NCBI GenBank assembly: GCA_040390485.1
Contig: JAZJYH010000044.1
Span: forward strand, 698 to 64,697
Length of the DNA stretch: 64,000 bases
Direction: 5' to 3'
Source of the DNA: Pseudomonadota bacterium
Lineage (GTDB): Bacteria; Pseudomonadota; Gammaproteobacteria; Burkholderiales; Burkholderiaceae_D
Part shown: piece after piece, positions 47,927 through 63,348 of the stretch
Numbering within the stretch: position 1 is the first letter of the stretch
How the letters are laid out: each line of letters starts with the position of its first letter
Program-made: the position numbers and the translations under genes
The notes under the pieces: generated by a model
Seen by the model: only the letters and a program-made list of their open reading frames with translations
What the model was told of the DNA's origin: nothing
Databases searched by the model: none

Positions 47927-48877
47927 TTAACCGGGGGCAATTTCGGTATCGTAATGCGCCGTAACTTGGTGTTCCCTGCGCGCCGCCCAGCGCATCGCCG
48001 CGATGGTGACGGCGGCCAAGCCCAGGCCGGCAAAGGTATCCACCAGGTAATGCCCGCCTTCGGTCGGCGTCGACAGTATCATCACAAGATTGAGGGCGGA
48101 GGCAAGCAGGAACAGCGGGCGGCAATCGCGCAGTACGTAGGTCAGGATCACGGCCAACGCGGCGTGATAGGATGGAATGGAAATCAGGCCCTGGATATTA
48201 TCGATGTCGAACACCCGCATCGTGCCGTTACGCAATAAATCGAAATGCGATATCGTCTGCAGCTCGGCTTCGCTGCCGAGTCCGTAGTAGGTGAAAGCGC
48301 TATGCGCCGGAAAGCCCGCGGAAACCAGTAACAGCAACAGCGAGGACAACATGATGCAACTGACAAATTCACGCAAGTGCTGCGCCCGCCCGCTAAGGCC
48401 GAGAAACCAGGGAATCGCAATAAACTGCAACAGCAGGCTGGCATAGGCAATCTGCAAAACGGCACTAAGGACGCGGCTGCCTCGCACCCAAAGAAAAGCC
48501 TGCGCCCAATCAAAACCGATCAACTTGTCCCAGGCGGCAAGCTGCGCATCCACCACGGGCGGATTCAGCGTAACGGCCAGGTACTGCAAGACCCCGCCCG
48601 CAACGGTAAATACCGACAGCTGAAAAATGCAGTGCAAAGTCAACCGGGCTCTTTGCCCGTAGGGGCTGCGCGCCACTTCGCGATAGCGGGGAAGCCGTCC
48701 AATGAAAGCTAGCAACAGCAAGCCCAGCAGGGCAATCAAAAGAACGGCCAATGACTGGACACCGCGGACGGAATAATGCGATATCGACAACCAGACCGCA
48801 TCCACGACGAAAACGGCCAGCGTCAGCACCCACCGGAGCGCATCGCCTTGCGTCAATATTTTTATATTTTTCGGCAT
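47927..48877 (-). CDS. PAP2-superfamily membrane protein (PAP2_3 / IPC-synthase-like)
   Basis: Multiple TMs; FPAHSA, ISIPSYHAA, GGHYLVD motifs; divergent from the flp array. Confidence 0.8.
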   Translation of the reverse strand: MPKNIKILTQGDALRWVLTLAVFVVDAVWLSISHYSVRGVQSLAVLLIALLGLLLLAFIGRLPRYREVARSPYGQRARLTLHCIFQLSVFTVAGGVLQYLAVTLNPPVVDAQLAAWDKLIGFDWAQAFLWVRGSRVLSAVLQIAYASLLLQFIAIPWFLGLSGRAQHLREFVSCIMLSSLLLLLVSAGFPAHSAFTYYGLGSEAELQTISHFDLLRNGTMRVFDIDNIQGLISIPSYHAALAVILTYVLRDCRPLFLLASALNLVMILSTPTEGGHYLVDTFAGLGLAAVTIAAMRWAARREHQVTAHYDTEIAPG

Positions 48878-49422
48878 GTCATGAACTCAATGTTCCTGAA
48901 CCGAGCGGAATGTTCAGCGTTGCAAACAGCTTTGCAAATGTATGCCCTTCGTAGCGCCAAGCGTGTGCCGCGCCTTGAGCTTACTTCACTGCAAGATTGC
49001 GGCTAACGCAAGAGCCGGCTCCATCACCCACCAAACAAGGCATATGAAATGTGCAAGCCAGCATTTTTTTGCAAAAACTTTACGCCTTGCAACACAAAAA
49101 AATAATTATCTCGATCAATCACAGCGGCAAAGCGAGCCGTCAACTGTCGATATTAAGGCCAAAAAAGTGAATTTATCCGATTTTTTTTGTGAATTCAATT
49201 GTTGCGATTGAAATTACACAAATTTTGAAAAACTTTGTCAATCATTGTCACAAGCCAACGCACAAATTTGTAATAGTTTGTAATCGTGCCTACACTGAGT
49301 TCGCAGGGAAGTGGAAAACGTGATGGTGAGCAACTTACTTTCACGAGGCGCAAGCAGCGAAACGGAACTCTGCAAAAGCAAGGCCTGGTGTAATTCACTT
49401 TTATAAAATTAGGGAGTTAATC

Positions 49423-49599
49423 ATGAATGCTATAAAGAAGTTCTTCAGGGAAGAGGACGGCGCAGCGGCAGTTGAATACGGCCTGCTGGTTGCCTTGATC
49501 GCTGCCATTATTGTTGCTACTGTGAAAATTCTGGGCACCGTGATCCTGGGCGCGTTCAAAACCGTATGTAACGCCATCACTACCGGCGCTTGTCCTTAA
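49423..49599 (+). CDS. flp: Flp pilin 1 (58 aa; absent from the ORF track)
   Basis: MNAIKKFFREEDG/AAAVEYGLLVALIAAIIV..CNAITTGACP; RBS AGGGAG. Confidence 0.93.
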   Translation: MNAIKKFFREEDGAAAVEYGLLVALIAAIIVATVKILGTVILGAFKTVCNAITTGACP

Positions 49600-49610
49600 G
49601 GAGCATGATC

Positions 49611-49787
49611 ATGAACTCCATTTTGCAATTCTTGAAAGAAGAAGACGGTGCAGCGGCAGTTGAATACGGCCTGCTGGTTGCCTTGATCGCCGCCATCATC
49701 GTTGCTACTGTGAAAATTCTGGGCACCGTGATCCTGGGCGCGTTCAAAACCGTATGCAACGCCATCACTACCGGGGCTTGTCCTTAA
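49611..49787 (+). CDS. flp: Flp pilin 2 (mature sequence identical to pilin 1)
   Basis: MNSILQFLKEEDG/AAAVEYGLL..; RBS AAGGAG overlaps the previous stop. Confidence 0.93.
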   Translation: MNSILQFLKEEDGAAAVEYGLLVALIAAIIVATVKILGTVILGAFKTVCNAITTGACP

Positions 49788-49798
49788 GGAGCATGACC

Positions 49799-49975
49799 GT
49801 GAACTCCATCTTGCAATTCTTAAAAGAAGAGGAAGGCGCGGCGGCAGTTGAGTATGGCCTATTGGTTGCATTGATCGCCGCCATCATTGTTGCTACGGTA
49901 AAGATCCTGGGGACCGTCATCCTGGATGCATTTAAAACCGTGTGCAATGCCATCACTACCGGCGCTTGCCCTTAA
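49799..49975 (+). CDS. flp: Flp pilin 3 (GTG start; one G-to-D change in the mature part)
   Basis: VNSILQFLKEEEG/AAAVEYGLL..ILDAFKTVCNAITTGACP; 188-bp period. Confidence 0.93.
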   Translation: MNSILQFLKEEEGAAAVEYGLLVALIAAIIVATVKILGTVILDAFKTVCNAITTGACP

Positions 49976-50022
49976 GGCAACATGCTAATAGGCCAAGCAA
50001 TTGCTGTATGCAATAGAAAGAC

Positions 50023-50061
50023 ACCCCGCCTGCTCAACATGATTCAAGAGCGGTGCGGGGT
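50023..50061 (+). promoter_or_regulatory. Intergenic stem-loop between flp3 and flp4
   Basis: ACCCCGC-CTGCTC..GAGCGG-T-GCGGGGT. Confidence 0.5.
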
Positions 50062-50089
50062 AGTTTGATGCAATTGAAGGAGCGGAATC

Positions 50090-50278
50090 ATGGCACACCA
50101 GCTAATCTCGGCGTTACTAAAATTTCGCGACGATGAGCGAGGCGCATCAGCAATTGAATATGCGCTGCTGGTCTCCCTGATTGCAGCGGTGATAGCGGCA
50201 GTGGTCGGCGTGCTGGGCGCGCAAATTAAAGCCGCCTATTGTGCGTTCGTGACGGCCATGGCAGGCAGTTGCCCTTAG
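50090..50278 (+). CDS. flp: Flp pilin 4 (divergent paralog)
   Basis: DDERG/ASAIEYALLVSLIAAVI..YCAFVTAMAGSCP; RBS AAGGAG. Confidence 0.9.
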   Translation: MAHQLISALLKFRDDERGASAIEYALLVSLIAAVIAAVVGVLGAQIKAAYCAFVTAMAGSCP

Positions 50279-50421
50279 CGCTTACTGTAGTTTAAGTAGT
50301 TTGAAGAATGAAACGGAATTAGCGACGCCAGTTGCTGATCGCATTGTTGCGCGCTGATTCTATACAGATGCTGATTTCTTGTCGATACCAGAAAATTCCT
50401 GTTATCCGGGTGTAATTCAAA

Positions 50422-51036
50422 ATGGACATTCTGACCCCTGCCCTGGTTGCCGATAGTGTTGTCGGGCTATTGTGCGCGCTGCTGCTGGTTGCGGTCTGGA
50501 CTGACGTAAAAGGCCATCGCATACCGAATCGCCTGGTCTTTGCCGGCGCCGCACTGGGGATCTTGCTGAACACTTTCCTGCCGGAAGGCCGCGGCTTCGT
50601 CAGCATCCTGCCGGGTGCATTGGGATTCTGGAGCGCCCTGGCAGGTATGGTCCTGGGTGTCGCCATCCCCTTACCCATGTATGCATTGCGGGCGATGGGC
50701 GCCGGCGACGTCAAGCTGATGGCGATGGTCGGTGCCTTCCTGGGGCCACTCGCACTAGGTATCGCGACCTTGCTGATTTTTATCATCGGCGGCGTACTGT
50801 CCATGCTGACCGCCCTGCGCTACGGCACCCTGGGCTTGCTAATCAGCAACGTACGCACCATCATGCTGAGCAGTTTTTTCAAGGCGGTCTTACATGAAAT
50901 GCCGGTAGTGGATAGCGCGCCGGTGTCGGCCGGCAAGATGCCCTACGGCGTCGCCATTGCTGCAGGAACCTATTTGTACATCGTGCTGGCAAACAACGGT
51001 TACCTGGATTTTATCCGTGCGATGTTTGTAAAATAA
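50422..51036 (+). CDS. cpaA: Prepilin peptidase (A24)
   Basis: WTDVKGHRIPNRL, MGAGDVKLMAMVGAFLG, MPYGVAIAAG. Confidence 0.9.
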   Translation: MDILTPALVADSVVGLLCALLLVAVWTDVKGHRIPNRLVFAGAALGILLNTFLPEGRGFVSILPGALGFWSALAGMVLGVAIPLPMYALRAMGAGDVKLMAMVGAFLGPLALGIATLLIFIIGGVLSMLTALRYGTLGLLISNVRTIMLSSFFKAVLHEMPVVDSAPVSAGKMPYGVAIAAGTYLYIVLANNGYLDFIRAMFVK

Positions 51037-51117: not shown

Positions 51118-52479
51118 GTGGCGACAATAAGTTTGGTCGAAAATGTGGGGACTGATGCGGGCGGTACACCTGCGCACATCCTCCCGCAACCACGTACAGT
51201 GGAAGATACCGGACTGGATTTTTTATTCCTGACCGAACTCTCCTGCAAAATCCTGTTCCTGCGCGGCAGGACCAGTCTGCTCGATCTGTCAGCGCACATC
51301 AAACTGCCCGTCTCCGTGCTGGAAATCGTTCTCGATTTCATGCGCGCCGAACACTTATGCGAACTGGTCAGCCGCGGCGACAGCAGCGGCAGCACCTTCT
51401 TCCAGCTATCCGATACCGGGCGCGCACGCGCTGGGGATTTTTTACGGCGCTGCCAATATGCGGGCCCGGCGCCGGTAAGCCTGGATGCCTACGCAGCGCA
51501 AATCCGCCGCCAGTCCATCCGCCACCTGCGCTATACGCGGGAAATCATGGCCGCCGGATTTGACGGCATCATCATGCAGGAAAAGGTTTTGGACCAACTG
51601 GGTGCAGCGATGAACTCCAGCCGTGCCATCATCATCTACGGTCCCGCCGGCAGTGGCAAAACCTATATCGCAGAACACCTGACCAGCCTGCTGTCGGATG
51701 TGGTCGCCATTCCCTACGCGATCCTGGTCGACAATGAAATCATCCAGCTGTTCGACCCGCACGTCCATGAGCTGATGCAGCAGCCGGCTGCTCCCGTCAC
51801 TAACCTGGCCCGCAGGCCGGGCGCCGATGCGCGTTGGCTGGTGTGCAAGAGACCGGTAGTGATCACCGGCGGCGAGCTGACCATGGAAACCCTGGATCTC
51901 GATTTCGACGACGGCACCCGTTACTACCAGGCCCCGCCGCATGTGAAGGCCAACAGCGGCCTGTTCGTGGTCGACGACCTGGGGCGGCAAAAGGTCTCCC
52001 CGCAAGAATTGATGAACCGCTGGATCGTCCCGCTGGATCGCGGCCGCGATTACCTGACCCTGCATACCGGCTACAAGTTCCAGATTCCTTTCGATGTGAT
52101 CGTGGTGTTTTCATCGAACAATGACCCGGCCACGATGACCGACGAAGCTTTCCTGCGTCGGCTCGGCTACAAGATCCATATCGGGCCGCTGAACGAAGAA
52201 CAATACCGGCGCGTATTCAGGCAGGTGTGCGACGAACTGGCGATCCCGTTTTCCGCTGCTGCCCTGGACTACCTGCTGCAGCAACACCACTACAAGGAAA
52301 ACCGGCCGCTGCTGGCTTGTTATCCGCGCGACTTGCTGGGACAGATCAGGGACCTGGCAATCTATGAGAGCCAGTCGCCGACACTCACTACCGAAACGCT
52401 GGACTGGGCATGGAATAATTATTTCACGCCAGACCAGAGAGCGGCCGGCAAGCAGGCGATGGAAAATAGCAATGACTGA
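51118..52479 (+). CDS. AAA+-like ATPase of unknown function within the Tad locus
   Basis: N-terminal wHTH-like segment; Walker A GPAGSGKT; Walker B LFVVDDLGRQ; DEAFLRRL. Confidence 0.75.
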   Translation: MATISLVENVGTDAGGTPAHILPQPRTVEDTGLDFLFLTELSCKILFLRGRTSLLDLSAHIKLPVSVLEIVLDFMRAEHLCELVSRGDSSGSTFFQLSDTGRARAGDFLRRCQYAGPAPVSLDAYAAQIRRQSIRHLRYTREIMAAGFDGIIMQEKVLDQLGAAMNSSRAIIIYGPAGSGKTYIAEHLTSLLSDVVAIPYAILVDNEIIQLFDPHVHELMQQPAAPVTNLARRPGADARWLVCKRPVVITGGELTMETLDLDFDDGTRYYQAPPHVKANSGLFVVDDLGRQKVSPQELMNRWIVPLDRGRDYLTLHTGYKFQIPFDVIVVFSSNNDPATMTDEAFLRRLGYKIHIGPLNEEQYRRVFRQVCDELAIPFSAAALDYLLQQHHYKENRPLLACYPRDLLGQIRDLAIYESQSPTLTTETLDWAWNNYFTPDQRAAGKQAMENSND

Positions 52480-52532
52480 CGACGATCGATTCACCGGTTT
52501 AGGAATCGAATTACAGAAAAGCAGGGGGAGCC

Positions 52533-53390
52533 ATGAAAAGCAGCAGAGCACTACTAATGATAGGCGCATCCATCGTCATTGCATTGTTGGCGGTAGTACT
52601 GGCGACGCGCTGGATTTCCGAGCAGGCCAGCCTTGCCACCAATAAGGTCGTGGTGGCGGCGGTCGACGTCAACCTGGGAACCCGGCTAACGCCCGAAATG
52701 ATCAAGCTGGCCGACTGGCCCGCCGGCAGCGTGCAGAAAGATAGTTTTAACGACATCAAGGTGCTCGATACCCGCGTCACCCGCGTCGCCCTGCAACGCG
52801 GCGAACCGCTGACAGAATCCAAGCTGGCGCAACGCGGCGCCACCGGCGGCCTGTCGGCCGTGGTGGCAGAAGGCAAGCGCGCGATGACGGTGCGCGTCAA
52901 CGACGTGGTCGGGGTCGCCGGCTTTGCACTACCGGGCAACTTCGTCGATATCCTGGTCAGCACCCAGGAAGAAAACAGCAAGGGTGCGGCCAAGGACCTG
53001 AATATCTCCAAATTGGTGCTGGAGCGGATACTGGTGCTGGCCGTCGCGCAGGAAGCCAGCCAGAGCGACACCAAGCCCAAGGTGGTCAATGCTGTCACTC
53101 TGGAGGTCACTCCCGAGCAAGCCGAAAAACTGGATCTGGCGCGCAGCGTAGGCCAATTGTCGCTGGTGCTGCGCAACCAGGTGGACCTGAAGCCTACATT
53201 GACAGTCGGCGCCACCAAGCAAAGCCTGCTATACGCCGTGCCGGCGTCGGTGGCGGCTGCCATTGCGCAAAAAGTACCGGAAAAAATCGTCATCAGGCCG
53301 AGACTTGTGGAGGTCAAAGTCGCAGCCGCGCCGCGCGAGGAATGCCAGCAAATCATGACCGGCTCCGGCCGCATCACGCAGTGCCACTGA
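52533..53390 (+). CDS. cpaB: Flp pilus assembly protein CpaB/RcpC
   Basis: SAF domain; GKRAMTVRVNDVVGVAGFALPGNFVDILV; VTLEVTPEQAEKL. Confidence 0.93.
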   Translation: MKSSRALLMIGASIVIALLAVVLATRWISEQASLATNKVVVAAVDVNLGTRLTPEMIKLADWPAGSVQKDSFNDIKVLDTRVTRVALQRGEPLTESKLAQRGATGGLSAVVAEGKRAMTVRVNDVVGVAGFALPGNFVDILVSTQEENSKGAAKDLNISKLVLERILVLAVAQEASQSDTKPKVVNAVTLEVTPEQAEKLDLARSVGQLSLVLRNQVDLKPTLTVGATKQSLLYAVPASVAAAIAQKVPEKIVIRPRLVEVKVAAAPREECQQIMTGSGRITQCH

Positions 53391-53469
53391 TTGTTGCAAG
53401 CGCACAGGAATAAAGCGAAAAAACCGCGAAAAATATTACGCAAGTAACCGCCGCAACGGGGAGAAGAAG

Positions 53470-55164
53470 ATGAAGAAGAACCAGATGGCAGGGATGGCAG
53501 CAAACATCAGGATCAGGCCGGGACTGGCAGTGACGACGATCGGCGCCGTATTGGGCATGGCCATGGCGGCGTATGCGCAAACCGGGGTGGAAACCGCCGT
53601 CTTGCTGAACCAGGCTCCTCGCCCTTCCCCCGTCAACCCTACCGCCATGGCAGCGGCCGCGCCCACAACATCAGCGGCAAAGGCCCCGGCCAAGAGTGCC
53701 GCCACGGCCGCGCCTTGCGGCATTACGCCGGTCTGCACGGGTGAGTTTTCACCGACCAAATACGTCAACCTTCCCGAAGGAAAATCGGGCCTGCTCGATT
53801 TGCAGCAGCTGAACCTGCCCACGCCCGCGCGGCTGTGCCTGAGCGGCGATCCGGAAGTGGTACAGGTAGAGCCGCTGTTTTCGGCAACGCCGCGCGGCAG
53901 CTTCTTCCTGTTCGGCAAAAACATCGGTTCAACCAACCTGATGTTCCAGAGCAAGGAAGGACGCTGCGCGATGGTGGAAGTCACGGTCGCGGTGGATACC
54001 GGCTCGGTGCAATCGAAACTGACCCAGCTGATGCCGGAAGAAAAAAATATCAGGGTCAGCGCAGCCGCTGATTCCCTAGTCCTGAGCGGCACCGTGGCCG
54101 ACTCCATGGCGGTTGACCAGGCAGTCGCCATTTCCCGCGCCTACCTGCGCAAGGATTGGCGCAAGACCGGCGGCGGTGCTGGTGGTGCTGGCGGAGGCGG
54201 AGGCGGCGGTGGTGGCGGTGGTGGCGGCAGCGCGGGTGGCGACGAAAGGATAGTGAACATGCTATCGGTCGCGGCGCCGCAGCAGGTGATGCTGGAGGTA
54301 AAGGTGGCCGAGGTGTCCAAGACCTTGCTCGATCAACTCGGCGTTGGAGTCACCGCACGTACCTTCGGCGGCAGCTGGGGATATACCCTGCTGTCCAATT
54401 TCCTGACCGGCTCCGCCGGTGGCCTGCTGGATGCAAAAAAATCCAACGGCTCGCAAATCACCCTGGAAGCGCAAAAGAAAGACGGCCTGGTGCGCATACT
54501 TGCTGAACCTACCGTGATGGCAATCAGCGGTCAGGAAGGCAGTTTCCTGGCCGGCGGAAAAATCTTCATCCCTGTAGCGCAAGACATAGGCGGCAAAATC
54601 ACGCTGGAAGAAAAGGAGTTCGGTGTCGGACTCAAGTTCACCCCTACCGTGCTGGCCGGTGGCCGCATCAACATCCGGGTCGCGCCTGAAGTGTCCGAGC
54701 TTTCACGCGAAGGCATAGGCATCAGCGCCGTCGGCATCTCCGGCACCAGCATTTTGCCTTTGATCACCACGCGGCGCGCAGCCACCACTGTGCAACTGCA
54801 TGACGGTCAAAGCTTTGCCATCGGCGGGCTGATCAAGAACAACGTGACGACCAATATCAAGGGCCTGCCCTTGCTGGGCGAAATTCCTGTGCTGGGCGCG
54901 TTATTCCGCAGCACGGACTTCCAGCAGGACAAGACAGAATTATTGTTTGTGATCACGCCGCACCTGGTGCAGCCGCTTCCTGCCAATTATGCACTGCCTA
55001 CCGATAACGCGATCAACCCCAGCCGTGCCGACCTGTTCCTGATGGGCCGCCTGGAAGGCAAACCGGTTGAACCCGCACCACAGGCAGCGAAGCAGCCAGC
55101 CGCGCCGAAAATGGACGAAGACAAGAACCAGCCCAAGGGCCCGTCCGGCTTTGAGCTGAAATAA
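53470..55164 (+). CDS. cpaC: Tad secretin CpaC/RcpA
   Basis: QQVMLEVKVAEV, LAEPTVMAISGQEGSFLAGG, EFGVGL, PVLGALFRS, TELLFVITP; poly-Gly linker. Confidence 0.93.
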   Translation: MKKNQMAGMAANIRIRPGLAVTTIGAVLGMAMAAYAQTGVETAVLLNQAPRPSPVNPTAMAAAAPTTSAAKAPAKSAATAAPCGITPVCTGEFSPTKYVNLPEGKSGLLDLQQLNLPTPARLCLSGDPEVVQVEPLFSATPRGSFFLFGKNIGSTNLMFQSKEGRCAMVEVTVAVDTGSVQSKLTQLMPEEKNIRVSAAADSLVLSGTVADSMAVDQAVAISRAYLRKDWRKTGGGAGGAGGGGGGGGGGGGGSAGGDERIVNMLSVAAPQQVMLEVKVAEVSKTLLDQLGVGVTARTFGGSWGYTLLSNFLTGSAGGLLDAKKSNGSQITLEAQKKDGLVRILAEPTVMAISGQEGSFLAGGKIFIPVAQDIGGKITLEEKEFGVGLKFTPTVLAGGRINIRVAPEVSELSREGIGISAVGISGTSILPLITTRRAATTVQLHDGQSFAIGGLIKNNVTTNIKGLPLLGEIPVLGALFRSTDFQQDKTELLFVITPHLVQPLPANYALPTDNAINPSRADLFLMGRLEGKPVEPAPQAAKQPAAPKMDEDKNQPKGPSGFELK

Positions 55165-55174
55165 GGAGATCATC

Positions 55175-55540
55175 ATGACTCACCTGAATACCGATGCAGG
55201 GCGACTCGCACCGTCCGCCCCTGACGTAAAAGCAACATCGGCAATATCGGCAATATCGGCAATACCGCGCTTGCTTAAACTACCGGCGCTGGCCGCATTG
55301 CTGGCATTGACGGCCTGTGCGCAGACTACGCCGCGCGCCGACGCCGTCTTCGGCGACACGGTCAGGGTCGCCGTCGCCAGGCAAACCATGAACCCGGACG
55401 CCTCTAAAAACACCGACCCGGTCAGCGGCATGGACGCCAGGGCCGCCCGCGACGGCCTGGACCGCTATCACAAATCGTTCAAGGAACCGGCCCCGCATCC
55501 TAGCGTATTTACCATCGGTGTCGGCAGCGGCGGCGGTTAG
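55175..55540 (+). CDS. Small Tad-associated lipoprotein
   Basis: Lipobox LTAC; DPVSGMDARAA..RYHKSF; 3x 9-bp repeat TCGGCAATA (SAI x3) at 55238-55264. Confidence 0.7.
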   Translation: MTHLNTDAGRLAPSAPDVKATSAISAISAIPRLLKLPALAALLALTACAQTTPRADAVFGDTVRVAVARQTMNPDASKNTDPVSGMDARAARDGLDRYHKSFKEPAPHPSVFTIGVGSGGG

Positions 55541-55615
55541 CCGGCCGAACCTAGCAGCGGCAACAGCAACAGCAACAGATGTAAGCAGCATAGCAACAAG
55601 CAAGGAGGCACCGTC

Positions 55616-57094
55616 ATGAAACGTCCATCGCCTGCGAACCACCTGCAACGCGGCAGCGTCGCCATCATGCTGGCGCTATGCCTGGCCGTTTTGTTCGGCT
55701 TCATGGGCTTGGCAGTAGACCTGTCGCAAACCTATGACCGCAAGACCGAGTTGCAGAATATCGCAGATGCAGCGGCGCTGGCAGGGGCAAAGGAATTGAA
55801 TGGGCAGTTAAGCGGCATCAATAATGCGATCACAAAAGCGCAAACATTCGCACAAAGTAACTCTTACAAATTCGGCAGTGCCCAGGTGGTCTTGAACGAG
55901 GCCTCCATCAAGTTCAGCGATTCCCCTGATACCGCCGATGCCAGCTGGCTCGACGCCAGCGCGGCAAAGGCCAGTCCAGTGGGGCTGTTTTTCGTAAAAA
56001 TAGATACCCGCGCCATTGCCAGCCCCTCCGATGTCGGCACGGTCAATACCAAGTTCATCAAGGCTGTGTCCGCGGCGACCACCACCACCGGCGCCTATGG
56101 CCGCGCGGTGGCCGGCAGGTTTGCGATAACCGTGACACCTATCGGCGTCTGCGCCGCCGATCCCGACCATGAAACCCTCAACGTGCCGCATGCCGGCTTG
56201 CCGGACGAATTGATGGAATACGGTTTCCGGCGCGGCCTGGCCTACGACATCGTCAACCTCGACCCGCTCGGCTCATCGCCGGTAAAATACCAGCTGAACC
56301 CGCTGGACGTGGCGACCAGCGCCAGCGACTCTAGCTGTAATCCGGCCAATAGCAGCACGTCCACCATGAAGCCCTTCATCTGCAGCGGCTCTTCCAACAT
56401 CGTCATTACGCTACCTGGCTATGCATTTACCAATACAGGCATGTCGGCCGCGCTGAATGCGCAATTCAATGCCCGTTTTACCTCCGGTGGCGTATGCACC
56501 GTGCCGCCTGACGCCAATGTCAAGGAATACCCGCCCAGCGTGGCGGCGCCGGCAGCGGGAACGGGCTGGATGACGCCTACAGCTCCAGTGCTCAATGCAC
56601 AGACCGTCAAGTTGCTCAGCGCCAGGCCTTTCTACCTGACCGCCACCCCTACCGCCACCAAGGCCAGCGACTGGGGTGTGCTGTGGTCGTACAATGCCGC
56701 CGTCAAATACGCCCCGCCCCACGACCCTTACACCACGGCCGACTGGCCGCTGCTGTATCCGGTGGTCCCGCCGACAGCGCCGACCACCCCGTCGGCCAAT
56801 GGGAATTACCCTGCCGCGCCGAAAAACCCCTACGACCAGACTAGCGGAACCTTCTACCAGGCCGGCACAGGCGCACGCGACCGGCGCGTGCTGAACGTCG
56901 TCATTGCCGATTGCCGCCCATCAGGGCTCGGCGGTGGCGGCAGTTGCTCCACCATCAAAGTGCTGGGTGTAGGAAAATTTTTCATGACGATACAGGCCGA
57001 TGTATCCAAGGCCAGCGACGCGCTGGACGCCGAATTTGCCGGCTTGATACCGGACAACGCCATACTCACCAAAGAAATCAGGCTCTACAAATGA
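55616..57094 (+). CDS. tadG: TadG-like pseudopilin/adhesin
   Basis: QRG/SVAIMLALCLAVLFGFMGLAVD, ELQNIADAAALAGA; Pro/Thr/Cys-rich C-terminal region. Confidence 0.8.
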   Translation: MKRPSPANHLQRGSVAIMLALCLAVLFGFMGLAVDLSQTYDRKTELQNIADAAALAGAKELNGQLSGINNAITKAQTFAQSNSYKFGSAQVVLNEASIKFSDSPDTADASWLDASAAKASPVGLFFVKIDTRAIASPSDVGTVNTKFIKAVSAATTTTGAYGRAVAGRFAITVTPIGVCAADPDHETLNVPHAGLPDELMEYGFRRGLAYDIVNLDPLGSSPVKYQLNPLDVATSASDSSCNPANSSTSTMKPFICSGSSNIVITLPGYAFTNTGMSAALNAQFNARFTSGGVCTVPPDANVKEYPPSVAAPAAGTGWMTPTAPVLNAQTVKLLSARPFYLTATPTATKASDWGVLWSYNAAVKYAPPHDPYTTADWPLLYPVVPPTAPTTPSANGNYPAAPKNPYDQTSGTFYQAGTGARDRRVLNVVIADCRPSGLGGGGSCSTIKVLGVGKFFMTIQADVSKASDALDAEFAGLIPDNAILTKEIRLYK

Positions 57095-57585
57095 AAACGT
57101 CCTTCCACCTACCCCGCAACACCCGGCCGGCCGCACATCGCGCACAGCACGGTGCGGCCGTGGTGGAGCTGGCCATCGTACTGGTGCTGATGAGCTTGCT
57201 GTCGGCCGGCATTTTTGAATTCTCGCGCGCCTTCTGGTACTACAATGCGCTGGACAAGGCTACCCGCGACGCCGCCCGCTATGTGTCGGCGTTGCCCGCC
57301 ACCGACCTGTCCACCAGCAGCAACGTGACGGCCATTACCACTAATGCAAAGACACTGGTGATGACCGCCGTCAACGGCTCCAATGTCAGCCCGGCACTGA
57401 CGAGCTCGAACGTCAGCGTCAGTTGGGACTGCACTCCACCTTGCGCGGGCATCACCAAGCCGACCTGGGTCCAGGTCAGCATCACCGGTTACAACATCAC
57501 CATAGGCAGCACCCTGCCTTTGATCGGCATGGGCAGCGGCACGGTGACTTTGCAGCCCTTCACCCAGATGCGTTACATGAATTAG
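57091..57585 (+). CDS. tadE: TadE-like pseudopilin
   Basis: QHG/AAVVELAIVL, ATRDAARY; ATGA overlap with tadG. Confidence 0.87.
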   Translation: MKTSFHLPRNTRPAAHRAQHGAAVVELAIVLVLMSLLSAGIFEFSRAFWYYNALDKATRDAARYVSALPATDLSTSSNVTAITTNAKTLVMTAVNGSNVSPALTSSNVSVSWDCTPPCAGITKPTWVQVSITGYNITIGSTLPLIGMGSGTVTLQPFTQMRYMN

Positions 57586-57593
57586 GCTGCGAC

Positions 57594-58199
57594 ATGAGAC
57601 CAGAATCCACACACTCATCCTCATCCCGGCGCGGCGCGACGACGGTGGAAATGGCGTTGGTGCTGACGGTGTTCGTGATCTTGCTGTTCGCCGCGATGGA
57701 ATTGGGGCGCGCAATGTATCTGTGGAACACCTTGCAGCACGTCACGCGGCAAGCCGCACGCGACGCCACCGTGACCGATTTCACGGACGCCAGCGCAATG
57801 GCGGTGGTAAAGCAAAACGCTATATTCCGAGGCATAACAGGCACCAATCCCGGCGCACTGATAGCCGCGCCGGAAATCACTGATGCATCGATCAGGATTA
57901 CTTATCACAGCATAGATGCCGCCGGCGCACTGCACGATGTCGATCTTACCACCACCGCGACCTGCCCACCCAAGGTGGTGACGGATTGCGTGAGCGATCC
58001 TAACGGAGCCACCTGCATACGCTTCGTGCAGGTTCGCATCTGCGATCCGTCCAATGCGGCCGCATGCAATCCGGTCAAATACCAGGCCATGGTGCTACCT
58101 GCTTTTATTGCCGGCTTTGCCAATCTGTATCTGCCGATATCGCCGTCGATATTGCCGGCGGAAAGCCTGGGATTCCGGCCGTCGTCGCCGAGCTGTTAA
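57594..58199 (+). CDS. Second TadE/TadF-like pseudopilin
   Basis: RRG/ATTVEMALVL, VTRQAARDA; several Cys. Confidence 0.85.
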   Translation: MRPESTHSSSSRRGATTVEMALVLTVFVILLFAAMELGRAMYLWNTLQHVTRQAARDATVTDFTDASAMAVVKQNAIFRGITGTNPGALIAAPEITDASIRITYHSIDAAGALHDVDLTTTATCPPKVVTDCVSDPNGATCIRFVQVRICDPSNAAACNPVKYQAMVLPAFIAGFANLYLPISPSILPAESLGFRPSSPSC

Positions 58200-58364
58200 A
58201 GCAGATGCAGAGACAAGATGCAGGCAGAGGATGCAGGCAGAGTGCAGATAGGATGGGGGCAGGAATGTTGAATATTGAAATTGGCAGAACGAACTGCGCA
58301 CCGGATTCAGGGCAGCCCCGTTTTGCACCGACCACCGTAACCAGGATATTGACAGGCAAAGAAA

Positions 58365-59597
58365 ATGGACAAACCCACACTGACCTTAGTAGATGGAAAA
58401 AATCTCAACAAGAAGGTAACCGGTATGGATGAATTACGTTACATGGTAGTTTCTCCCAGCAGGCGGCACCTGGACGATATCGTGCACGTTTTGCGGGGAG
58501 CGGCCGGCGCTTCCGAAATTTCCGCCATGGAAGGAGATTTGCCGCAATTGGGCAATCTGGCCAACCAGGCGGTTCCGGACGTGCTGATTGTCGATAGCGG
58601 CGGCGACGGCCGCAGCGACCTGGCCGCGCTGGAAAGACTGGGGGCCCTGTATCCCGGCATGTCTTTCATTGTCCTGCGCGAGCAGCAATCGGCGGATTTC
58701 CTGATCCAGGCCATGCGCGTCGGCGTGCGCGAAGTATTGCCGCTGCCGCTCAATACCGACGCCCTCAGCGGGGCGCTGCAGCGCACCCGCCAGCACCTGG
58801 GATTTTCAGCCAACAGGAGCGGCAAGGTGCTGGCCTTCATCTCTTGCAAGGGCGGTAGCGGCGCTACCTTCCTAGCCGCCAACCTGGCGTATACGCTGGC
58901 GACGCAGAGTAGCAAGAAAGTAGCCTTGTTCGACTTCAACCTGCAATTCGGCGATGCGCTGCTGTTCCTGTCCGACCATAAGCCGGCGGCAACGCTGGCC
59001 GATGCGGCGCGCGGCATCCACAGGCTGGATCCGGCATTCCTGGCCAGCAGCATGGTCCACGTGACGCCTAGCCTTAGCGTGCTGGCTTCGCCGGAAGACC
59101 CGGCGCAGGGCACCGAGGTGAAGCCCGACCATATCGATTCCCTGCTGCGGATGGCGCGCAACCAGTATGACTTCACGATCCTGGATGTGGGCCGCAGCCT
59201 GGATGCGCGCACCATCAAGGCGCTCGACCATGCAGACATGATTTTCGTGGTCTTGCAGGTGACCCTGCCCTTCATCCGCGACGGCAAGCGCTTGATGGAA
59301 GTGTTCCGTACGCTCGACTACCCGAAAAACAAGATCCACCTGGTCGTCAACCGTTACCAGAAAGGCGGCGACATCAGCCTGGAAGATTTGCAGCAATCCC
59401 TGGGCAGCAAGGTATTGCGCACCATCCCCAACCATTACGAAGCCGCCGCCGCGTCGGTGAACCAGGGCATACCGATCGCCAAGCTGGCACGCAGCAGCCC
59501 GGTGAGCAAGGCCTTGACGGAATGGAGCGAGGCGCTGGCCAAGGAACCGGAAAAGGATGAAGACAGCTGGATCAAGCGGGTTTTCAAGCGTGCCTGA
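58365..59597 (+). CDS. cpaE: CpaE/TadZ receiver-MinD-like pilus localisation protein
   Basis: Receiver-like PDVLIVD..AMRVGVREVL; deviant Walker A KGGSGAT; FDFNLQFGD. Confidence 0.9.
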   Translation: MDKPTLTLVDGKNLNKKVTGMDELRYMVVSPSRRHLDDIVHVLRGAAGASEISAMEGDLPQLGNLANQAVPDVLIVDSGGDGRSDLAALERLGALYPGMSFIVLREQQSADFLIQAMRVGVREVLPLPLNTDALSGALQRTRQHLGFSANRSGKVLAFISCKGGSGATFLAANLAYTLATQSSKKVALFDFNLQFGDALLFLSDHKPAATLADAARGIHRLDPAFLASSMVHVTPSLSVLASPEDPAQGTEVKPDHIDSLLRMARNQYDFTILDVGRSLDARTIKALDHADMIFVVLQVTLPFIRDGKRLMEVFRTLDYPKNKIHLVVNRYQKGGDISLEDLQQSLGSKVLRTIPNHYEAAAASVNQGIPIAKLARSSPVSKALTEWSEALAKEPEKDEDSWIKRVFKRA

Positions 59598-59714
59598 AAT
59601 TGAAATAAAGCCAGGGTAGGCACAAGTTCCCACCCTGGCAATCTGGATATTTTTTCATACCGGCTAGCCTTCTGCAAAGAGGCAAGCCGCAGTAACAAGC
59701 ACCGGAGTCATATC

Positions 59715-61082
59715 ATGTCATTACGAGATCGATTGGAAGCAAACGGCAGCGCGGAACATACTCCGGTCGCCCCGAGCCTGAATATTGTAACGACTGATAA
59801 TCGTGCCTACCGCGAGTTGAAGACCCGCATTCACACCACCTTGCTGGACAGGATAGACCTGCAAGTGATGGAAAAACTGAGCCAGGCCAGGTTGATGGAC
59901 GAGATGAAGGGCCTGGTGGAAGAATTGCTGAGTGAAGAAAAGGTCGTCATCAACGATGCCGAGCGCAAGAACATGGTGCGCGACATCCAGTTCGAGATGT
60001 TTGGCCTGGGGCCGATAGAACTGTTGATGGCCGACCCTGCGGTCTCCGACATCCTGATCAACACCTACAAGCAAATCTATGTAGAGCGTTTCGGCAAGCT
60101 GGAGCTGACCGATATATGCTTCAACGACAACGCCCACCTGATGAAGATCATTGACAAGATCGTATCGCGCGTCGGCCGCCGGGTGGATGAATCCAGCCCC
60201 CTGGTGGACGCCAGGCTGCCGGACGGGTCCCGCGTTAATGTGATCATTCCGCCGCTGGCGATAGACGGCCCTATCGTCTCTATCCGCCGCTTCGCCCTGA
60301 AGCCGCTGACCATGGACGATTTTATCCGCTACCAGAGCGTCATCCCTGCGATGGCGCAGGTGCTGGAGGGCCTGGCAAAGGCCAAGGTCAACATGATCAT
60401 CTCGGGCGGTACCGGCGGCGGCAAGACTACTTTGCTGAATATCCTGTCCGGCTTTATCGGCGCGACCGAGCGCGTGGTCACCATAGAAGATGCGGCTGAA
60501 CTGCAAATGCAACAGCCGCATGTGGTCAGGCTGGAAACCCGCCCACCGAATATTGAAGGCAAGGGAGAAATCACGCAACGCGCCCTGGTGCGCAATGCCC
60601 TGCGCATGCGCCCTGACCGCATCATCGTCGGCGAGGTGCGCGGCGCCGAAGCCATCGACATGCTGCAGGCGATGAATACCGGGCACGAGGGATCAATGGC
60701 GACGGTCCATGCCAATACCCCGCGCGACGCCTTGACGCGGCTGGAAAACATGATAGGGCTGGCTGGCATGAACCTGCCCTCCAAGGTGACCCGCCATCAG
60801 ATCAGCTCGGCCATTACGGTGGTGATCCAGGTTGCCCGGCTGTCCGACGGCAAGCGCAAGGTGGTCAGCATCCAGGAAATTACCGGGATGGAGGGGGAAA
60901 TCATCACGATGCAGGAGATCTTCTCTTTCAAGCAAACCGGCATCACGATCAACGGCACGGTGGCAGGGTATTTTTGCGCCTCCGGTGTGCGGCCGCGTTT
61001 TAGCGAGCGTCTGCATGTGCATGGCATAGATCTGCCGGATGAGTTGTTTGACCCCAGCCGCCAGTATGAAATTAAGACCTGA
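59715..61082 (+). CDS. cpaF: Tad traffic ATPase CpaF/TadA
   Basis: [39 protein letters not shown]. Confidence 0.96.
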
Positions 61083-61117
61083 GCAAGACCTGAGTAAGAC
61101 CTGAGCAAGGTCTGAGC
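61074..61117 (+). repeat. 4x 11-bp tandem repeat at the cpaF stop
   Basis: AAGACCTGAGC AAGACCTGAGT AAGACCTGAGC AAGGTCTGAGC. Confidence 0.9.
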
Positions 61118-61193
61118 AATACCAAAAAATGATAGCTGGAAGCCGGAACTGACGGCGCGAATTAAAAGCGGCAATTGAAAGCAGAGGCGGATA

Positions 61194-62171
61194 ATGGACT
61201 ATCTGTATATCTTCTTTGTGGTGGCGATCTTCATCGCGGTGGTGCTGGCGATAGAGGGTTTCTTCGTGACCTGGAACGCCTCGCGCGGGCCGGCGGCAAA
61301 GCGCATCGCGCGCCGCTTGCAAGTCATGTCGGCCGGCAGCCATGCCGGCCAGGCGAGCGTCTCCATCCTGAAAAAACGCCTGCTCAGCGAAACCCCGGGC
61401 ATGCAAAAGCTATTGCTGGAAGTGCCGCGCATCCATGGGCTGGACCGGCTGCTGGAGCAATCCGGCATGAAGCTGAATGTGGCCAATTTCTGTATTCTGT
61501 CGCTAGCCTGCGGCGTGTGCACGCTGGCCGGGCTATGGTATGCCGGAGTGCCGGTATTATTCGCCGCCATGCTGGGGATAGCCGCACTCTGCCTCCCGCT
61601 GCTCTTCGTGCGCGGCAAGAAGAGCCGGCGCCTGACCAAGATAGAGCAGCAATTGCCGGACGCGCTGGACCTGATGGGCCGCGCCATGCGCGCCGGCCAT
61701 GCTCTGCCTTCGGCGATCCAGATGGTCAGCGAAGAAATGTCCGACCCGCTGGCGGAGGAATTTCGCATCGTTTTCGATGAAGTCAACTACGGCATCTCCA
61801 TGCAGGACGCGCTGAAAAACCTGGCGACCCGGGTACCGGGCACCGATGTCGGCTATTTTGTGGTGGCGGTGCTGATCCAGCGCGAGACCGGCGGCAACCT
61901 GACCGAGCTGCTGCACAATATTGCCACTATCGTACGCGAACGGCTCAAGCTGTTTGGGCAGATCAAGGTCTTTTCCGCCGAAGGACGGCTGTCTGCGTGG
62001 ATACTCACCTTGCTGCCCGTAGGCCTGGCTGGCGTGCTGCAAGTGGTCAATCCTGAATTCATGAGCCTGCTGTGGACCGATGAAGTCGGGCGGAAAATGC
62101 TGGGCGGCATGCTGGTCATGATGTTTTTGGGTGCGGTATGGATACGCAAGCTGATCCGCATCAGGGTGTGA
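61194..62171 (+). CDS. tadB: TadB inner-membrane platform protein
   Basis: QLPDALDLMGRAMRAGH, QRETGGNL, SAEGRLSAWIL. Confidence 0.92.
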   Translation: MDYLYIFFVVAIFIAVVLAIEGFFVTWNASRGPAAKRIARRLQVMSAGSHAGQASVSILKKRLLSETPGMQKLLLEVPRIHGLDRLLEQSGMKLNVANFCILSLACGVCTLAGLWYAGVPVLFAAMLGIAALCLPLLFVRGKKSRRLTKIEQQLPDALDLMGRAMRAGHALPSAIQMVSEEMSDPLAEEFRIVFDEVNYGISMQDALKNLATRVPGTDVGYFVVAVLIQRETGGNLTELLHNIATIVRERLKLFGQIKVFSAEGRLSAWILTLLPVGLAGVLQVVNPEFMSLLWTDEVGRKMLGGMLVMMFLGAVWIRKLIRIRV

Positions 62172-62273
62172 AGCACAAATTGATGCAAATTACTGTGTTC
62201 GTTAATGAAGTGGGCAGGCTCTGAGAACAAAGGGATGGACATCACGCCACTATGAGGTCCGCAAATCCCAAGG

Positions 62274-62347
62274 CATCATCCCCGCGAAAGCAGGGATCCA
62301 TTGTTGTATCCGGCAAGAAGTAGATTCCCGCTTTCGCGGGAATCACG
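62274..62347. repeat. Inverted REP pair (REPIN-like) between tadB and tadC
   Basis: CATCATCCCCGCGAAAGCAGGGATCCA (62274-62300) and, inverted, CGTGATTCCCGCGAAAGCGGGAATCTA (62321-62347). Confidence 0.75.
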
Positions 62348-62406
62348 CAGAGAGTCTGGCTGCTTTGCCTGAGATAGTTCTATGCAAGCCTTAAGGGAGA
62401 GTCATC

Positions 62407-63348
62407 GTGTCTGGCATTTACATCATTTTCCTGATCGTCTTCTTTTTTGCGGTGTTTGCCGGCGCCATGCTGCTGATGCGTTTCCTGTTGCCCAATCCAG
62501 TGCAACAGCGCCTGCAGCAACTTGACGAACGCGCCGTCAACGCCAGCGAACCGAAGCTCGGGGCGGACTGGATTGCCAGGATCGCCAAGATTTCCAGCCC
62601 GCTGGCGAAATTGTCCATGCCGGACGAAGGCTGGGAAAAATCCGCGCTGCGCATACGCTTCATGAACGCCGGGCTGCGCAGCGAAAATACGCCGGTGCTT
62701 TATTTTTCCGTCAAGACCCTGCTCGCCGTCTCGCTGCCTGCCCTGCTGTGGCTGGTGCTGGCTGTGGGCGGCTCAACGCTGACTTCCGATTCCTTGCTGT
62801 TTGTCCTGCTGGTGGCGGCGACGGTTGGTTTTTACCTGCCCAACCTGGTCATCGCCCAGATGATCAAGGCGCGCCAGTTGAAAATTTTTGAGACCATCCC
62901 GGATGCGCTGGATTTGATGACCATATGCATAGAGGCCGGCCTGGCCATGGATGCGGCGATCGCCCGCGTCGCCGGTGAAATGGCGCCGGTGGCGCCCGTC
63001 ATCAGCGAGGAACTGCACCTGGTGACGCTGGAACTGCGCGCCGGCAGCAGCAAGGACAAGGCCTTGCGCAACCTGGCCATGCGCACCGGTGTGGAGGACG
63101 TGGACACGCTGGTGGCGATGCTGATCCAGGCGGAACGTTTCGGCACCAGCATAGGCGAGGCGCTGCGGGTACATGCAGAACATTTGCGCACCAGGCGCCG
63201 CCAGCGTGCCGAAGAAGCTGCCGCAAAAATCGCGCTGAAGCTGCTGTTCCCTTTGATCTTTTGTATTTTTCCAGCCTTGATGCTGGTATTGATGGGGCCG
63301 GCCATGATCCAGATATACCGCGCCTTTGTCCCTGTGGGTTCGGGCTGA
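62407..63348 (+). CDS. tadC: TadC inner-membrane platform protein
   Basis: PDALDLMTICIEAGL, LIQAERFGTSI, KLLFPLIFCIFP; GTG start after AAGGGAG. Confidence 0.92.
   Translation: MSGIYIIFLIVFFFAVFAGAMLLMRFLLPNPVQQRLQQLDERAVNASEPKLGADWIARIAKISSPLAKLSMPDEGWEKSALRIRFMNAGLRSENTPVLYFSVKTLLAVSLPALLWLVLAVGGSTLTSDSLLFVLLVAATVGFYLPNLVIAQMIKARQLKIFETIPDALDLMTICIEAGLAMDAAIARVAGEMAPVAPVISEELHLVTLELRAGSSKDKALRNLAMRTGVEDVDTLVAMLIQAERFGTSIGEALRVHAEHLRTRRRQRAEEAAAKIALKLLFPLIFCIFPALMLVLMGPAMIQIYRAFVPVGSG

Follow-up and report, generated by a model that had tools for sequence, protein, structure and literature searches.

Type IVa and type IVb pilins, such as that of P. aeruginosa PAK, have a globular alpha-beta domain of 110-200 residues that includes a disulfide-bonded D-region. 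[quoted passage not shown] Caulobacter crescentus encodes its Tad pilin, PilA (8U1K; bNY30a, 8U2B/8UCR), in one pilA gene; in Haemophilus ducreyi the flp-tad operon is opened by flp1-flp2-flp3 (PMC3201912), and in Bdellovibrio the tad operon is opened by flp1-4 (PMC5430801).

The locus described here lies in a window of 64,000 nucleotides from a draft assembly (146 contigs, 5.8 Mb, 90.65% complete). The best named relatives of LolC, a housekeeping protein in the window, are those of Undibacterium spp. (76-78% identity), and the host is most likely an Oxalobacteraceae bacterium near Undibacterium. As in H. ducreyi and Bdellovibrio, several tandem flp genes open the operon; the predicted sizes of the three Flp proteins in H. 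ducreyi are unequal (9.3, 8.9 and 9.9 kDa), whereas the mature products of the window array are identical or one residue apart. The window pilin belongs to the same family as Caulobacter PilA, has the same mature length of 45 aa and aligns with it without gaps, starting at the first mature residue (E about 3e-12); however, PilA has no Cys, whereas Cys36 and Cys44 of the window pilin flank a 7-residue segment, and the single pilA stands against three near-identical genes and a fourth in the window. Multiplicity itself is well known, and a sample of loci anchored on tadV, the prepilin peptidase gene, contained 1 to 5 full-length flp genes per locus. Three species of the same bacterial family as the host, Duganella rivi FT55W, D. 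flavida FT135W and D. alba FT9W (L030, L033 and L034, respectively), have 4-6 flp genes upstream of tadV, of which two or three encode identical mature pilins, as in the window array, although these pilins lack Cys and are of a different Flp sequence type. In these three loci and in Duganella L040 and L068, the arrays of 4-6 flp genes upstream of tadV, several of them for identical mature pilins, are each broken up by a single short and divergent flp-like gene, the product of which ends in LAVLGSKT.

The features at the head of the locus are as follows.

49234-49296, plus strand: upstream block, made up of TTTGTCAATCATTGTCACA, then the direct repeat TTTGTAATAGTTTGTAATC (TTTGTAAT-A-G-TTTGTAAT), then TACACT.
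49366-49416, plus strand: 5' leader segment; its AACTCT (49366-49371) could base-pair with AGGGAG (49411-49416), the Shine-Dalgarno sequence of flp1.
49423-49599, plus strand: flp1, a 58-aa prepilin with an ATG start and a type A leader (MNAIKKFFREEDG); mature pilin of 45 aa with Gly30, Cys36 and Cys44; PF04964, 42 bits.
49598-49603, plus strand: flp2 Shine-Dalgarno AAGGAG, overlapping the flp1 TAA stop.
49611-49787, plus strand: flp2, a recombinant gene with an ATG start and a type B leader (MNSILQFLKEEDG, flp3-like); mature protein identical to that of flp1.
49786-49791, plus strand: flp3 Shine-Dalgarno AAGGAG, overlapping the flp2 TAA stop.
49799-49975, plus strand: flp3, with a GTG start, good Shine-Dalgarno spacing and a type B leader (VNSILQFLKEEEG); mature pilin with Asp30; placed by ORF and translation; L012 and L013 have Asp-type genes in the corresponding position.
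50020-50063, plus strand: stem-loop between flp3 and flp4, with no clear U-tract.
50090-50278, plus strand: flp4, 62 aa, ending YCAFVTAMAGSCP; PF04964, 43 bits; own Shine-Dalgarno at 50077-50082.

An earlier note on this DNA had reported three tandem flp genes with starts at 49423, 49611 and 49799 and an exact period of 188 bp, each stop merging into the next Shine-Dalgarno sequence. Both the sequence and the ORF listing agree with this description, and Tandem Repeats Finder returned one array (period 188, 2.8 copies, 89% matches, score 839). The genes end CCT TAA GGAG, such that the TAA overlaps AAGGAG; the flp1/2 and flp2/3 junctions both read CCTTAAGGAGCATGA(T/C)C(A/G)TG, and AAGGAG stands 7-8 nt from the next ATG or GTG. 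The gaps between the three genes are 11 nt each, with no promoter or terminator inside, and translational coupling of flp1-3 is supported. The default ORF list does omit flp1, as had been remarked, because its 58 aa fall below the 60-aa cut-off; flp2 and flp3 are listed only by way of upstream in-frame starts that lengthen both. Antisense ORFs of 59-62 aa across the repeats are mirror images of the repeated flp genes and are unsupported as genes. Genome-wide, a profile search of the whole 5.8-Mb draft found flp1-flp4 only; the fourth gene (50090-50278), which is diverged and also bears a Cys pair, had not been mentioned before.

The identity of these genes as flp was borne out by Pfam: flp1, flp2 and flp3 each match Flp_Fap (PF04964) at 42 bits against a curated cut-off of 32.2, and in the genome search all four genes exceeded that cut-off, with flp1 and flp4 at 42-43 bits. 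No NCBIfam model matches the four Flp proteins or TadV. The prepilins have a short leader ending in Gly (EEDG|AAAVEYGLLVALIAA), the Flp motif (G/XXXXEY) and a hydrophobic helix. Processing is predicted at G13|A14 (EEDG|AAAVEY), and G13, E18 and Y19 are invariant in the homologue alignment; the resulting mature length of 45 aa falls within the Flp range of about 40-60 aa. AlphaFold modelled the prepilin as a helix over residues 3-52 followed by TTGACP in coil, a 6-residue tail (mean pLDDT 78). The single helix and its tail leave no globular alpha-beta domain, unlike type IVa/IVb pilins.

A TadV/CpaA peptidase and Tad assembly genes lie directly downstream, and the tad locus 3' of flp4 is complete.

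50422-51036, plus strand: tadV/cpaA, prepilin peptidase (Peptidase_A24; PF01478, E = 2e-17).
51118-63348, plus strand: rest of the tad locus, with Pfam matches to RcpC, Secretin, Tad, TadE, AAA_31/CbiA, T2SSE and, twice, T2SSF; it comprises the following.
51118-52479, plus strand: P-loop protein of unknown role, between tadV and cpaB.
From 52533, plus strand: rcpC/cpaB (Pfam RcpC).
From 53470, plus strand: secretin rcpA/cpaC (Pfam Secretin).
From 55175, plus strand: small ORF.
From 55616, plus strand: tadG-like pseudopilin (Pfam match).
From 57423, plus strand: tadE-like pseudopilin (Pfam match).
From 58365, plus strand: tadZ/cpaE (Pfam match).
From 59715, plus strand: tadA/cpaF (NCBIfam TadA-family ATPase, 342 bits).
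From 61194, plus strand: tadB (Pfam match).
From 62407, plus strand: tadC (Pfam match).

With good though not complete confidence, we read the array as a pilin cassette that heads a complete Tad (type IVc) operon and supplies two pilin isoforms, in which the cysteines most likely close an intramolecular C-x7-C loop. The two isoforms are evident from the translations. Mature pilins 1 and 2 are identical and pilin 3 differs by the single change G43D (mature Gly30Asp), as had been claimed, and all three end in CNAITTGACP; the leader of copy 3 carries one further difference, D12E. The many synonymous differences from which purifying selection had been deduced are also present: over the mature region, copies 1 and 3 differ by 21 synonymous and 1 non-synonymous changes (pS 0.55, dS about 1.0, with silent sites near saturation), and copies 1 and 2 by 5 synonymous and 0 non-synonymous. 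A dN/dS of about 0.01 between copies 1 and 3 supports purifying selection on the mature pilin, on statistics that draw on few sites, about 45 codons per gene.

It is plausible, by analogy with Caulobacter, that the Asp variant lies on the filament surface. The phage PhiCb5 contacts Caulobacter pilin residues that match mature positions 29 and 37 here (PMC11067988), and in the gapless alignment Gly/Asp30 and Cys36 of the window pilin adjoin these two positions. The proposal that the Asp variant could alter surface charge or phage binding is reasonable, since residue 30 adjoins a PhiCb5-contact position.

The earlier note had called the Cys pair unusual, and this view did not survive comparison: all 32 nearest homologues have two Cys in the tail, and among 120 matches listed at least 44 carry the pair, one of them from the cultured Noviherbaspirillum pedocola. 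The N. pedocola locus L096 has a single flp, with the spacing C-x10-C. Its companion statement, that model Flp pilins are short and lack a disulfide region, agrees with the Caulobacter structures (8U1K and 8U2B have no Cys). Among 135 close representatives of 50%-identity clusters with a recognisable motif, a sample biased by a query profile built from Cys-bearing sequences, 51 had two or more Cys, 78 had none and 6 had one, the last being mostly fused or aberrant sequences. A fairer sample was chosen by the neighbouring tadV peptidase rather than by the pilin, and comprised 80 betaproteobacterial loci with 85 full-length Flp proteins, to be set beside about 260 database hits in the overall Cys sampling. 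In this tadV-anchored sample the pair was common (22/85 Flp; 17/54 betaproteobacterial loci): 63 of the 85 proteins had no Cys, 22 had a tail pair and none had exactly one, the even count that disulfide bonding would lead one to expect. The pair occurs in two positional types, F-x-x-V-C...C and F-C-x-V...C, with an enclosed segment of 5-16 residues, and what comes before the second Cys is commonly a small residue, often Gly. In the literature found, of which our coverage is incomplete, there was no description of native Cys or of a disulfide in Flp pilins.

Because of this strict pairing, of the exposure of the residues to the periplasm and then to the exterior, and of nine DsbA-family matches in the genome, a disulfide appears to be the likeliest state of the Cys pair, and an intramolecular surface loop its likeliest role. 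Both Cys36 and Cys44 lie within the last ten residues of the mature pilin. An unbroken helix would keep cysteines at i and i+8 from bonding, and for the loop to close the tail beyond residue 39 would have to fold back; since AlphaFold places TTGACP in coil after the helix ends at residue 52 of the prepilin, the tail could fold back onto prepilin Cys49, which is mature Cys36. A pair of Cys, conserved as a pair and enclosing a putative short surface loop at the extreme C-terminus, is also what likens the window pilin to the D-region of type IVa/IVb pilins, a resemblance that we would take as one of functional analogue and not of family membership.

The same residues might instead bond between neighbouring subunits and cross-link the pilus, for which multimers of Bacillus subtilis ComGC (PMC4322843) have been cited as an analogue. 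An even number of Cys fits such bonds equally well, and the surface-exposed tail that holds both Cys is a region in which subunits come near one another (PMC10710030). We nonetheless consider cross-linking unlikely: cross-links would block retraction of the kind shown by Caulobacter Tad pili, and a loop length that ranges over 5-16 residues among homologues is hard to accommodate in a fixed inter-subunit geometry but poses no difficulty to a loop. Pilins encounter DsbA as membrane-anchored monomers before assembly, and at that stage two Cys separated by only 8 residues would be expected to bond to one another before anything else.

The three copies differ by 10-23% in DNA. Copy 2 is a mosaic: from nt 6 to 27 it matches copy 3 at 9/9 informative sites, whereas beyond this, starting at nt 36, 20/23 informative sites agree with copy 1 (Fisher p = 1.8e-4). 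It is thus a recombinant of a copy-3-type leader with a copy-1-type mature part, and it additionally carries the bases of the relatives' Asp-type genes at nt 33 and 39 and private variants, found in neither neighbour, at nt 12, 24, 90 and 165. Four related loci provide context. On a metagenome contig from ENA (L012), a Gly gene with leader A and an Asp gene with leader B are accompanied by a decayed third copy and flp4; a JGI metagenome locus (L013, equal to genome G061 and of the window's GTDB genus) is laid out alike, with the Asp gene frameshifted. In L095 both leader types recur, on two major flp genes that are accompanied by a hairpin and flp4, and G062 has two major flp genes and one flp4-type gene. 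The decayed third copies (L012:464-650 and L013:5379-5565) lie 3' of the Asp-type gene and are 52-59% identical to intact flp over about 173 nt; the window lacks a relic of this kind, its third gene being intact.

The frameshift in the Asp-type flp of L013 (L013:5191-5366, identical in L014) stems from a T-run close to the leader that has shrunk by 2 nt, from T6 to T4, and leads to a premature stop; the JGI and Logan assemblies agree on it, though possibly from one common sample. A pseudogene, a switch that works by slippage and an error of sequencing are all conceivable, and because the gene is frameshifted there the second (Asp) isoform may be dispensable.

The simplest reading of these comparisons would be an ancestral three-copy array in which the mature part of copy 1 and its junction overwrote those of copy 2. 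One event of unequal crossing-over, with a Gly and an Asp gene as partners, could possibly have produced the same copy 2. A recent crossover as its only origin is weakened by the relic third copies and by the silent divergence of the copy 2/3 leaders, which exceeds that of the copy 1/2 mature parts (4/6.3 versus 5/38.7 sites; p = 0.01); gene conversion in a three-copy ancestor fits better, although the two are not firmly separable. As a cause of the protein that the paralogues share, gene conversion is no simple fit, for the pS between paralogues (0.53-0.75) equals or exceeds that of flanking genes between genomes (0.2-0.5). Dosage amplification of the major subunit, as had been proposed for the array, accounts for the array only in part: the recombinant does add template for the Gly isoform, but the Gly/Asp pair conserved in L012 and L013, the recombinant copy 2 and the decayed third copies of the relatives mark the array as an old, turning-over pilin cassette and not as a recent amplification.

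The flanking genes served as a yardstick of divergence between genomes. Among L012, L013 and L095 the dS of tadV, the P-loop gene and cpaB is 0.22-0.29, and against the window it is 0.53-0.79; flp paralogues within one genome reach a pS of 0.53-0.75, yet differ by just 1-3 non-synonymous changes. When L095 is compared with L012/L013, identity is 96-98% for the TadV proteins, whereas the major pilins have about 20 non-synonymous changes, nearly all in the last 23 residues. In a sliding comparison of L013 (5030-5915) with L095, the flp genes, the spacer and flp4 have 50-77% DNA identity, which jumps sharply to 90-98% just 5' of tadV and remains there through the downstream genes. Over this small number of sites the pilin cassette is thus a divergence island in which the paralogue proteins, the Cys residues and leader A are fixed; the island could have originated by exchange of whole cassettes between lineages, or by diversifying selection with short conversion tracts. 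Leader A (MNAIKKFFREEDG; window 49423-49461 and orthologues) has 0 amino-acid changes in four genomes, with 1-5 silent changes, over a comparison in which the mature pilin has up to about 20 non-synonymous changes; the second-type leader is variable.

Such a history would also suit a different role for the copies, in which flp1-3 are alternative pilins, one being the working major pilin and the others held in reserve, differentially translated or used as substrates for recombination by which the surface is varied, rather than dosage copies that are expressed together. Two leader types are conserved across genomes, leader A without change in four of them; recombination between copies has occurred; the Asp copy is frameshifted in one relative and a third copy has decayed in two; and between L013 and L095 the cassette has diverged to 50-77% DNA identity against 90-98% for the machinery genes. 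The window array is nevertheless difficult to read in this way, as all three genes have an intact start, a strong and well-spaced Shine-Dalgarno sequence and a full leader and mature part, the 11-nt gaps have no intervening promoter or terminator, and strong purifying selection on every copy means that none looks silent. We therefore regard the idea as improbable, and co-expression of flp1-3 as two isoforms as the preferred reading.

The divergence of the tail bears on the cysteines as well, since L095 and L012/L013 have both retained the Cys pair despite about 13 changed positions in the surrounding tail. That the Cys remain reduced, and serve in metal binding or covalent modification or are dispensable, would accord with the lack of any description of native Cys in Flp pilins in the literature found; this retention amid rapid change, together with the strict pairing (0/85 single), argues for a paired structural role, and the periplasmic or extracellular location and the DsbA homologues of the genome also speak against reduced Cys, which we judge to have little chance of being correct. 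It is very unlikely that the third copy is an assembly artefact and the true array two flp genes, for although the source is a metagenome-derived draft of 146 contigs at 90.65% completeness, and the intact major copies of relatives number two, four positions of copy 2 (nt 12, 24, 90 and 165) carry private variants, the 10-23% DNA difference between copies is easily resolved by short reads, and relatives bear the relic of a third copy.

The fourth gene is a candidate minor or alternative pilin. Its Cys pair has an alternative spacing, YC-x9-CP, and its orthologues occupy the equivalent position in L012, L013, L095 and G062. The 114-nt spacer between flp3 and flp4 folds with an MFE of -37.3 kcal/mol (z = -2.6), and L095, L012 and L013 have a hairpin of other sequence at the equivalent place, with two-sided changes at 3 pairs among the four sequences. 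The stem-loop is a candidate attenuator, or a stabiliser of the mRNA 3' end, that would set the ratio of pilin to machinery. Upstream of the array, the block at 49234-49296, about 130-190 nt from the genes, is nearly invariant in the window, L013 and L095, and the DNA further upstream diverges; the block is a candidate promoter/operator of the flp operon, in which the site of a regulator would overlap the promoter. A scan for consensus sigma-70 promoters and terminators gave nothing convincing on the plus strand near flp1 or after flp3. In the 5' leader, pairing of AACTCT with the flp1 Shine-Dalgarno sequence was predicted by RNAalifold in 4/4 related loci with zero compensatory changes, which hints weakly at such a structure. 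An Rfam scan of 48700-50500 (E <= 1) gave two chance-level matches only, so that the long flp leader shows neither a known riboswitch nor a known sRNA.

Together these features suggest how the cassette may work. Transcription would run through flp1-3 with coupled translation, and the stem-loop would probably limit or stabilise the abundant pilin message, such that flp4 and the machinery genes behind it are made at a lower level. TadV would cleave after Gly13 and remove the 13-residue leaders, yielding a 45-residue all-helical pilin as the Gly30 isoform, from two genes, and the Asp30 isoform, from one; the net effect of the recombination in copy 2 would be more template for the former. DsbA would close Cys36-Cys44 in the periplasm to form a C-x7-C disulfide loop that caps the C-terminus, and both isoforms would presumably be polymerised into the pilus.

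A bolder extension, to which we give somewhat less than even credence, is that Cys-pair Flp proteins form a widespread and unstudied Tad subclass whose last 6-17 residues are folded by an intramolecular disulfide into a minimal loop, similar to the D-region, on a helical filament that is otherwise bare, that in this lineage Gly30 and Asp30 isoforms with distinct, conserved leaders co-polymerise, and that the cassette is swapped or diversified, possibly under pressure from phages or predators, while the Cys staple is retained. The point of wider interest is the motif itself: between a quarter and a third of the sampled Flp pilins have a strictly paired C-terminal Cys motif that is undiscussed in the literature found. 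If the loop is true, it would give a new picture of the exposed tip of the Tad filament, with respect to stability, adhesion and phage recognition, and reduction or dependence on dsbA would offer a handle on Tad function in environmental Betaproteobacteria. The tandem array is an example of the birth, recombination and decay of a pilin cassette, and is not new in kind.

Two further observations concern the surroundings of the array. The 453-aa P-loop protein (51118-52479) reaches no Pfam or NCBIfam cut-off, and of 54 betaproteobacterial tad loci examined 35 have a homologue with 44-75% identity in the same place; the protein has the look of a conserved but unnamed part of such tad loci. A link between Cys-pair Flp and this gene between tadV and cpaB was considered and rejected, the gene being present in 10/17 loci with the Cys pair versus 25/37 without. 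Any Flp gene at all is carried by 3/84 species genomes of the window's GTDB genus, and the tad locus is thus rare and patchy within it; the carriers L013 and L095 share synteny in the S8 protease, PEP-CTERM and PAP2 genes that flank it.
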